Positions 2,679 through 3,590 of a DNA stretch of 64,000 bases are shown here, piece after piece. Every line of letters starts with the position of its first letter. Within the stretch, counting starts at the first letter, position 1. The notes under the pieces were generated by a model, which made no database searches, had not been told where the DNA came from, and saw only the letters and a program-made list of their open reading frames with translations. The translations under genes were made by a program, and so were the position numbers. This DNA comes from Minisyncoccota bacterium (GTDB lineage Bacteria > Patescibacteriota > Minisyncoccia > Phycocordibacterales > UBA6065). The stretch spans positions 30,861-94,860 of the forward strand of contig DASTLR010000014.1 in the NCBI GenBank assembly GCA_035714745.1. Reading direction: 5' to 3'.

Positions 2679-3590
2679 ATGGCCAACAGGCACCTCGCGC
2701 GCTCCGTCGTACTCCAAGCTCTCTTCGAGTGGGACGTTCGCGACAAAGACCCAAAGACCCTCGTCCATGCCATCGCCCGCGACGCCGAGGAGTTCGCTCC
2801 AGGCAGCAATTCCGCGGCCGACACCGCCTTTATGGAGGGCCTGGGCAAGGGCGTGGTCAAGAAGCTCCCCGAGATCGACACCATCATCACCAAGGCCGCG
2901 CCTGACTGGCCCCTGGACAAGATCTCTATCGTCGACAGGAACGTCCTGCGCATGGGCCTGTACGAGCTCCTTTTCGCCGACCGCGAGGAAGTGCCGGCGA
3001 AAGTGGCTATCAACGAAGCCATCGAGCTGGCCAAATCGTTCGGCGGCGAGAATTCCGGCAAATTCGTCAACGGCGTGCTGGGCTCGGTGTACAAGGAGCT
3101 CGGCGAGCCGGGCAAGGACGCCGTCTCAAAGAAGAAGGACGACAAGTTCAACATTCCCTTTGAAAAGATGCCGATCGTCAAATTGGGCGGCGCGGTGGTC
3201 TTCGCCCGCGACGGCGGCAAGGACGGACAGGTATACGTCGGCCTGGTCCACGACGTCTTTGGCCGTTGGACGCTCTCCAAGGGCAGCCTGGAAGAGGGCG
3301 AGGACGTACGGCAGGGCACCGTCAGGAAGGTAAAGGAAGAGATCGGCGCCGATATCAAGATCATAGAGGAAGTCGCTTCCAACGAATACGTGGCTACCCA
3401 TCCGGAAAAGGGCAAGCTCCGCAAGCAGGTGACGTATTTCCTGGCCGAGGCGCCGTACAAGCCCCTCAAGCTCAAGGAGACCGGCGGCCTGGACAAGGCC
3501 CAGTGGTTCAAGGCAGACGAGATCGGCGACTTGAACTTCTACGACGACATGTTGCCGATCATCGCCAAAGCGATTAAGATGATCCCCTAA
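2679..3590 (+). CDS. nusB: NusB antitermination factor fused to a C-terminal Nudix hydrolase domain
   Basis: N-terminal ARSVVLQALFEWD and ...VPAKVAINEAIELAKSFGGENSGKFVNGVL are NusB hallmarks. C-terminal GSLEEGEDVRQGTVRKVKEEIGA is a Nudix box (GX5EX7R[EK]UXEEXGU). Confidence 0.8.
   Translation: MANRHLARSVVLQALFEWDVRDKDPKTLVHAIARDAEEFAPGSNSAADTAFMEGLGKGVVKKLPEIDTIITKAAPDWPLDKISIVDRNVLRMGLYELLFADREEVPAKVAINEAIELAKSFGGENSGKFVNGVLGSVYKELGEPGKDAVSKKKDDKFNIPFEKMPIVKLGGAVVFARDGGKDGQVYVGLVHDVFGRWTLSKGSLEEGEDVRQGTVRKVKEEIGADIKIIEEVASNEYVATHPEKGKLRKQVTYFLAEAPYKPLKLKETGGLDKAQWFKADEIGDLNFYDDMLPIIAKAIKMIP

Follow-up and report, generated by a model that had tools for sequence, protein, structure and literature searches.

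NusB is among the most conserved of bacterial transcription factors, and it is normally a bare RNA-binding protein of 15 kDa. The 64,000-nucleotide stretch of DNA analysed here (the window; positions 30,861 to 94,860 of contig DASTLR010000014.1, from a Minisyncoccota bacterium) raises the question of what NusB might be doing with a second domain: one of its genes, here called nusB::nudix, encodes a chain in which NusB is followed by a Nudix-fold domain, directly upstream of rnc, the gene for RNase III. At issue are whether this chain is a real protein, how widely it occurs, and whether its Nudix half still works as a hydrolase. In brief, the fusion appears to be a lineage-wide variant of NusB, undescribed in the literature searched, and its Nudix family guards a predicted ligand pocket together with one metal-binding glutamate (Glu), not the full catalytic set.

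Domain make-up and spread of the fusion

A single NusB-Nudix chain directly upstream of RNase III, with a TAATG overlap between the two genes, had been proposed in a first-pass annotation made from the letters and their open reading frames (ORFs), and it is borne out by the ORF list, the sequence and domain searches (PF01029 and PF00293 for the chain, TIGR02191 for its neighbour). The two Pfam families that the annotation had named were both found above cut-off: PF01029 (NusB) at residues 7-139 (E 1.5e-36, 126 bits against a cut-off of 23.1) and PF00293 (NUDIX) at residues 187-294 (E 8.2e-13, 49 bits, cut-off 21.1), the latter score placing the C-terminal half in the Nudix superfamily. In NCBIfam, the nusB equivalog TIGR01951 scored 129.2 bits (cut-off 88.35), which places the chain in the NusB family, and the rnc product is a full-length RNase III (TIGR02191, 255 bits). 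The TAA stop (3588-3590) and the ATG of rnc (3590-3592) have one A in common, giving TAATG, and the Lys-rich linker described between the domains is present in the sequence (GEPGKDAVSKKKDDKFNIPFEKMPI). The features of the gene, on the forward strand (+) of the window, are as follows.

2679..3590 (+): nusB::nudix gene, ATG start, 303 amino acids, coordinates including the stop codon (ORF list)
2697..3095 (+): NusB domain, residues 7-139, all-helical (PF01029, TIGR01951, AlphaFold2 (AF2) model, Foldseek)
3099..3173 (+): Lys-rich linker, residues 141-165, LGEPGKDAVSKKKDDKFNIPFEKMPI (predicted local distance difference test (pLDDT) of the AF2 model, parsimony counts)
3174..3578 (+): Nudix-fold domain of Ap4A/Ap6A-hydrolase type, residues 166-300 (PF00293, AF2 model, Foldseek, profile)
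3282..3350 (+): degenerate Nudix box G202-x5-E208-x7-R216-K217-V-K-E220-E221-I-G223-A224 (sequence, box comparison among homologues)
3327..3329 (+): codon AAG for Lys217, at the site of the catalytic 'RE' Glu (sequence, alignment with Ndx1)
3587..3591 (+): TAATG stop/start overlap of nusB::nudix and rnc (sequence, ORF coordinates)

Neither a second NusB nor a second Nudix domain of the same subfamily was found in the 64-kb window.

By family score and predicted fold, the N-terminal half is a member of the NusB family, orthologous NusB itself. The AF2 model, from a 67-sequence alignment, has two confident domains (mean pLDDT 87.7) and a predicted template modelling score (pTM) of 0.49. Seven helices make up its NusB half, most of it at a pLDDT above 88, and this half has the NusB fold: Foldseek aligned it with T. 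maritima NusB (1tzv, TM 0.84), with 1eyv (TM 0.83) and with the Aquifex NusB of the NusB-NusE-RNA complex (3r2d, chain B, TM 0.87). The basic N-terminus of this half is invariant (R4, H5, R8) and the KVAINEAIELAK segment is conserved across homologues. From family membership we infer that the NusB half would bind S10 and BoxA and thereby join the antitermination complex. Linker residues 144-154 fall below a pLDDT of 50, and the linker is predicted to be flexible, with no fixed mutual orientation of the domains; although predicted flexible, it holds a conserved GEPGKD motif.

To place the chain among its relatives, we used a homologue set of 461 distinct full-length fusions, which form 57 clusters at 60% identity in the C-terminal domain (C-domain), and a locus set of 80 loci fetched from one genome per species (GTDB representatives). 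NusB and Nudix lie in a single reading frame in 79 of the 79 fetched loci with upstream DNA, and at least 583 stretches in the species-representative genomes code for a close relative of the Nudix domain. The first search returned, among the matches listed, the identical protein and 119 clusters at 64-90% identity, all but one with both Pfam domains. A search with the C-domain only gave 1070 representatives at E<=0.001; among the best 150 of these (one per 50%-identity cluster), 59 also had NusB, and many of the others were contig-end fragments. Two profile searches, one with diverse C-domains and one with distant full-length members, found both domains in all of the best 120 matches each, the lone exception being a diverged member in which Pfam detects NusB only. 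Because a single ORF recurs in frame across hundreds of protein clusters, the fusion is taken as a real single protein, and the worry that a frameshift or assembly error had joined two adjacent genes, voiced in the first-pass annotation itself, can be put aside with near certainty given the independent assemblies and the 79 in-frame loci.

The gene order rnhB - rpmF (ribosomal protein L32) - nusB::nudix - rnc - smc is conserved in the fetched loci, with rnc immediately downstream of the fusion in 80 of 80 as well as in three distant members of the same gene order: a Moranbacteria metagenome-assembled genome (MAG), another MAG that bears the label Marinimicrobia, and a member with a Nudix part that goes undetected by Pfam. 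Where organism names are informative, they are Paceibacterota, Parcubacteria, and Taylor-, Kaiser-, Lloyd-, Campbell-, Wolfe-, Nomura-, Giovannoni- and Moranbacteria. The 'Marinimicrobia' label, on a member with Paceibacteria-type gene order, is probably a mislabelling, and the many labels reading 'uncultured Candidatus Saccharibacteria' could not be confirmed and look unreliable. No reliable case outside Paceibacteria was seen among the named matches, which fall short of a proper census as the most distant 50%-identity representatives are without names. The best explanation of this distribution is a fusion specific to Paceibacteria/Parcubacteria, of which it would be the normal form of NusB. 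Paceibacteria are a large group of tiny uncultured bacteria and a major lineage of Patescibacteria.

In the databases, only precomputed Pfam annotations show this architecture, and the protein itself is named plain "NusB". A public protein 100% identical to that of the window is annotated 'transcription antitermination factor NusB [Candidatus Paceibacterota bacterium]', and the homologues from the first search carry only the name 'transcription antitermination factor NusB'. Literature searches for a NusB-Nudix protein, for NusB in Patescibacteria or for Nudix in the candidate phyla radiation found nothing relevant.

Ancestry and conservation of the Nudix half

In the AF2 model, the Nudix half is built around a beta-sheet, with the Nudix helix at residues 210-222. 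Its best relatives, by sequence profile as by fold, are hydrolases of diadenosine polyphosphates (ApnA). Foldseek matched it to the Aquifex Ap4A hydrolase 3i7u (aq_158, TM 0.85) and the Thermus Ap6A hydrolase Ndx1 (1vc8, TM 0.86), with M. tuberculosis Rv2985/MutT1, Chlamydia CT771 and NrtR as further fold matches. A profile of 24 diverse C-domains ranked 3i7u first (E 1.3e-21), then Ndx1 (1.7e-15), CT771 (2.5e-15) and human NUDT2 (3e-12), followed by the C. elegans Ap4A hydrolase and Dcp2. Similarity and pocket residues thus put the domain in the W-x-x-P/S-K-G branch of the superfamily, that of Ap4A hydrolases and Dcp2, and derivation from an Ap4A/Ap6A hydrolase would be the best explanation of its origin. 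Membership in RppH was rejected, with NF001936 matching only residues 172-235 at 30.1 bits against a cut-off of 118 (E 3.7e-7), and so were MutT, NudC and the other named NCBIfam Nudix families, against all of which the Nudix half scored far below cut-off.

The Nudix box reported in the first-pass annotation is present at residues 202-224 (GSLEEGEDVRQGTVRKVKEEIGA, nucleotides 3282-3350) but is not fully canonical: it departs from GX5EX7REUXEEXGU in that Lys217 replaces the Glu of 'RE'. Aligned with Ndx1, K217 falls on the Glu of 'REV', which leaves the set of glutamates incomplete, and E221 (Ndx1 E50) is retained; this is the residue changed in the inactive controls Ndx1 E50Q and RppH E57A. 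In MutT box numbering, we take position 217 to be Glu-53 and position 203 to be Lys-39. Glu-53 is essential in MutT, where E53A is inactive (PMC11460165).

Across the family, position 217 is E in 20 of the 57 clusters, K in 16, V in 9, A in 5 and I in 4, hence hydrophobic (V, A or I) in 18. The other box residues are kept more often, E221 in 52 clusters, R216 in 45, E208 in 43 and E220 in 40. The R-K type of box found in the window protein occurs in 111 of the 461 sequences, and some members, such as P0205, have almost no box left, yet retain the domain and the synteny. The pocket is kept far more strictly: W197, K201, Y253 and Y288 in 56 of 57 clusters each, W276 in 55, D192 in 54 and Y237 in 53. 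In a profile alignment, K201, Y237, K249 and Y288 fall on Lys42, Tyr82, Lys89 and Phe128 of human NUDT2, which are P1-phosphate ligands and the aromatic pair sandwiching adenine (PMC4734340), and these phosphate-ligand and adenine-stacking positions are kept in 46-56 of the 57 clusters. Loss of the box among homologues, which the first-pass annotation had named as telling against its own proposal, is therefore real in part, a complete box being found in 16 of the 57 clusters and 224 of the 461 fusions, with fold and ligand contacts nearly invariant.

Parsimony counts point the same way, although they come from a quick neighbour-joining tree of 229 fusions, a sample skewed towards close relatives: W197, K201, Y253, W276 and Y288 changed once each, Y237 three times and E221 seven times, against at least 60 changes at position 217, the 76th percentile of Nudix-domain sites (median 34.5). 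In the linker, G142, E143, P144 and K146 changed 6-16 times, compared with the same median. Judged from its sequences, the family preserves its ligand pocket along with a single metal-binding Glu, but not the catalytic set as a whole. A degenerate box, a retained pocket and a fused effector module together make a domain of pseudo-Nudix type, for which ligand binding is predicted.

Residues 203 (nucleotides 3285-3287) and 217 (nucleotides 3327-3329) also covary, 203 being the residue that follows the box's first Gly. In raw counts, which are not corrected for phylogeny, position 203 holds a basic residue (K, H or R) in 74 of the 83 sequences with Glu217, and S, G or T in 72 of the 99 with Lys217. 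This may be a charge swap, or a joint loss of two catalytic residues.

Possible roles of the Nudix half at the pre-rRNA leader

We tentatively propose that the Nudix half is a module that binds a nucleotide or an RNA 5' end, with little or no activity, and that its tether to NusB places it in rRNA transcription and in processing by RNase III. In such a scheme, the NusB half would sit with S10 on BoxA of the nascent pre-rRNA leader, within the antitermination/chaperone complex on RNA polymerase (RNAP), which in turn would promote processing by RNase III. The flexible linker would let the Nudix pocket reach around the BoxA site and take up a purine nucleotide with a polyphosphate chain. The most plausible ligand would be the 5'-triphosphate or nucleoside-tetraphosphate (Np4)-capped end of the same leader RNA, with free ApnA or nucleoside triphosphate (NTP) as the alternative; the transcript's own 5' end is favoured because a tether of about 25 residues joins the Nudix domain to a protein on the 5' leader. 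Triphosphate and Np4-capped RNA ends are substrates of related bacterial Nudix enzymes (PMC7044304, PMC8833179). Since Lys217 replaces an essential Glu, hydrolysis in this organism is expected to be weak or absent, so that binding would make the domain a clamp or sensor, not an enzyme, and relatives that retain 'RE' may still hydrolyse. Such a clamp or sensor has a direct precedent in human TRPM2, whose fused NUDT9-H domain binds ADP-ribose and is inactive through box substitutions, with activity kept in other lineages (PMC4974056, PMC6461439).

Several points weigh against this proposal. The complete box persists in 224 of the 461 distinct fusions, E221 in 52 of the 57 clusters, and E220, E208 and R216 in 70-79% of them. 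Because this retention of Glu and Arg exceeds what a fully dead pseudoenzyme would lead one to expect, the domain may still bind metal, or catalyse slowly or in an altered way. The contrast in evolutionary rate leans on the quick tree and skewed sample described above. An RNA 5' end is favoured over a free nucleotide as the pocket's ligand by inference, and ligand binding, RNA binding and inactivity of the Nudix half are all predictions.

It is tempting to extend the proposal, speculatively and with a low probability of being right, to a Nudix domain that, tethered to NusB at BoxA, would read the triphosphate or Np4-capped 5' end of the nascent pre-rRNA and so hold the leader on the elongating polymerase. 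It would then act as a built-in, SuhB-like stabiliser of the leader-trailer loop for RNase III. Where the box is intact, hydrolysis would let the end go, as a timer, and the lineage of the window would have a pure clamp.

The alternative that survives best, a serious one though we think it less likely, is that the Nudix half is an active co-transcriptional enzyme: an RNA 5' pyrophosphohydrolase, an RppH-like decapping enzyme for Np4 or nicotinamide adenine dinucleotide (NAD) caps, or an ApnA hydrolase. At the rRNA leader it would turn triphosphate or capped 5' ends into 5'-monophosphate and so enable leader decay or processing with RNase III. Such an enzyme would fit a fold and best matches that belong to active Ap4A/Ap6A hydrolases and then Dcp2, a box that is complete in about half of the distinct fusions, a nearly invariant E221, and an RNA pyrophosphohydrolase family (NF001936, E 3.7e-7) as the top weak NCBIfam match of the C-domain. 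Nudix enzymes of this kind do strip triphosphates and Np4 caps from bacterial RNA (PMC7044304, PMC8833179), and RsmB provides a case of a NusB-like domain that delivers an enzyme to rRNA. However, the window protein has Lys where MutT needs Glu, position 217 shows a faster rate than the median site and holds V, A or I in 18 of 57 clusters, NF001936 reaches 30 bits where its cut-off asks for 118, and members nearly without a box (P0205) still retain the domain and its synteny. The first-pass annotation had suggested a lineage-specific coupling of nucleotide or cap hydrolysis to the RNA machinery; its lineage-specific part holds for Paceibacteria/Parcubacteria, whereas hydrolysis as put there is not supported, the box being unconserved in the family and the protein having Lys217.

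By analogy with SuhB, the Nudix half could instead be a protein scaffold with no nucleotide ligand, bridging NusB/S10-BoxA to RNAP, NusA or NusG and stabilising the antitermination complex, an option that we regard as improbable. SuhB itself, a protein of inositol-monophosphatase fold, is an integral subunit of the antitermination complex that acts in rRNA transcription (rrnTAC), where it connects NusB/E-BoxA with RNAP and gives the complex stability (PMC4807359, bioRxiv 10.64898/2026.03.17.712431). Many members of the present family do without the catalytic box, and the conserved GEPGKD motif of the linker is what a docking element would be expected to look like, but the most conserved residues are the nucleotide contacts of Ap4A hydrolases, and no new surface is obvious among them.

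More improbable still is an uncoupled fusion, in which a housekeeping Ap4A-type Nudix gene adjoining nusB would have fused to it in a reduced-genome ancestor, the halves remaining independent: domain fusions are frequent in streamlined genomes, the linker is predicted to be flexible with no fixed interface (pTM 0.49) and the same genome has another Nudix domain inserted in LeuS, but one frame is retained even where identity to the window's Nudix domain is down to about 30-40%, the linker motif is conserved, and a housekeeping hydrolase would be expected to retain the catalytic Glu, which this family does not.

On any of these accounts, a two-domain protein stands in place of bare NusB across a whole major lineage of Patescibacteria. 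Should the Nudix domain indeed bind or process the nascent rRNA leader at its 5' end, it would tie 5'-end chemistry physically to RNase III processing and to the antitermination/chaperone complex; in E. coli, the coupling of transcription to processing by this complex is still being elucidated. The family would also offer a natural experiment in the passage from enzyme to binding module, the catalytic Glu flipping freely and the pocket frozen, with active and inactive orthologues to compare. If the Nudix half turns out to be no more than an ordinary hydrolase in a chance fusion, the result is a modest correction of annotation.

The surrounding locus, the LeuS insert and known systems

The neighbours of the fusion gene in the window, all on the forward strand, are those of the conserved cluster.

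814..1407 (+): rnhB (RNase HII), usual upstream member of the cluster (PF01351; synteny)
2337..2561 (+): rpmF (ribosomal protein L32), upstream neighbour (PF01783; synteny)
3590..4294 (+): rnc (RNase III), 234 amino acids (TIGR02191, 255 bits; synteny)
5238..7478 (+): short SMC-family ATPase, 746 amino acids, downstream neighbour (PF02463, E 1.4e-66; synteny)

The SMC-family ATPase, a constant member of the cluster, is 700-755 amino acids long in relatives (L161-L163), far shorter than typical bacterial SMC. Between rpmF and nusB::nudix lies a G+C-rich hairpin, GAAGCCCGC-TTCA-GCGGGCTTTT (2586-2608, +), and a similar stem-loop followed by a T-run occurs at the same place in many relatives; this may be a terminator or attenuator that parts rpmF from nusB-rnc. 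Elsewhere in the window, 8442-10451 holds two long overlapping ORFs on opposite strands (623 amino acids on +, 669 on -), the + product being without a Pfam match.

Sequences resembling BoxA (consensus GYTCTTTAANA, PMC5725501) were seen just upstream of the nusB::nudix start codon in relatives (e.g., GTTCTTTATAC, GTTCTTAAATA). In a scan of the 50 nucleotides upstream of nusB in loci L001-L080, made with this published consensus, a BoxA-like sequence with two mismatches or fewer preceded nusB::nudix in 22 of 76 loci, compared with rates of 4.9% for random windows, 8.7% for shuffles and 4-14% upstream of neighbouring genes. This enrichment suggests autoregulation of nusB::nudix by Nus factors. 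The best BoxA-like match of the window itself is weak (GTACATTATCA, three mismatches, 2669-2679), and no Shine-Dalgarno sequence is evident ahead of its nusB::nudix. The window holds no rRNA leader, Rfam having returned only two tRNAs over its whole length.

The first-pass annotation had further counted a Nudix module in LeuS as the second one on an RNA-machinery protein in this window, and had seen in the pair a possible sign of coupling. The insert is genuine. LeuS starts at 62525 (+) and runs past the end of the window at 64000, and its Nudix domain (PF00293, E 1.7e-11) lies just after the editing-domain motif, with a canonical box at 63800-63865. About 36 metagenomic loci (L081-L116, L119) match the whole LeuS query including the insert at 38-65% identity, and in the full-length ORFs of L083, L085, L089, L098 and L109 LeuS resumes after an insert of about 170 residues, so that at the level of these matches the insertion is real and recurrent. 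The idea of one coupled system, in contrast, is unsupported because BLASTP aligns only the boxes of the NusB and LeuS Nudix modules, and close paralogy between them was rejected on that ground. Ahead of its editing domain, the LeuS of L083 (ORF 2052-5492) has a further insert, about 190 residues long (…HGFQSGPDRPRW…GHSLGS…), which looks like an alpha/beta-hydrolase.

The Nudix subfamily of the NusB fusion turned up in other arrangements as well: behind a helix-turn-helix region like the C-terminus of DnaA in P0223 (379 amino acids), after a multi-pass membrane domain in P0254, and as a tandem duplicate in P0208. In P0193 (577 amino acids) a long N-terminal extension lies ahead of NusB-Nudix.

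Among known systems, the window protein shares with canonical NusB its fold, equivalog score and basic N-terminus, and no other NusB occurs at its locus; canonical NusB stands alone, with about 130-150 amino acids, whereas here 160 residues of linker and Nudix domain are added and the gene is coupled to rnc. With the Ap4A/Ap6A hydrolases (3i7u, 1vc8, CT771, NUDT2 and the C. elegans enzyme), the Nudix half has in common W-x-x-x-K-G, the phosphate-binding Lys, and the adenine-stacking Tyr and Tyr/Phe. Those enzymes are free-standing with an intact REUXEE, and the present domain is fused to NusB with Lys for the 'RE' Glu, at a position that varies within the family. RppH likewise is a Nudix enzyme that acts on RNA 5' ends, Np4 decapping included, and was first characterised as an ApnA-hydrolase type, with a weak likeness to the present domain through NF001936; unlike the window Nudix, which lacks the catalytic Glu and scores far under the RppH cut-off, it is not fused to a transcription factor.

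The closest parallels in design come from more distant proteins. In TRPM2 NUDT9-H and NrtR, a Nudix domain with a mutated box is fused to another module and has kept ligand binding, which in the window Nudix is only predicted; both belong to other Nudix subfamilies, of ADP-ribose binders, and their partners are an ion channel and a winged helix-turn-helix (wHTH) DNA binder, so that the likeness is one of analogy and not of homology beyond the superfamily. RsmB/Sun also joins a NusB-type RNA-binding domain to an enzyme fold that acts on rRNA, and RsmB models match the NusB half of the window protein, but its NusB-like domain is a diverged paralogue and its partner an S-adenosylmethionine (SAM) methyltransferase that makes 5-methylcytosine (m5C) in 16S rRNA, whereas the N-terminal domain described here appears to be orthologous NusB. 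SuhB, in the rrnTAC of E. coli, likewise puts an enzyme fold to work as a subunit with NusB/E-BoxA and RNAP that promotes RNase III processing, but it does so with the inositol monophosphatase fold and as a separate polypeptide.

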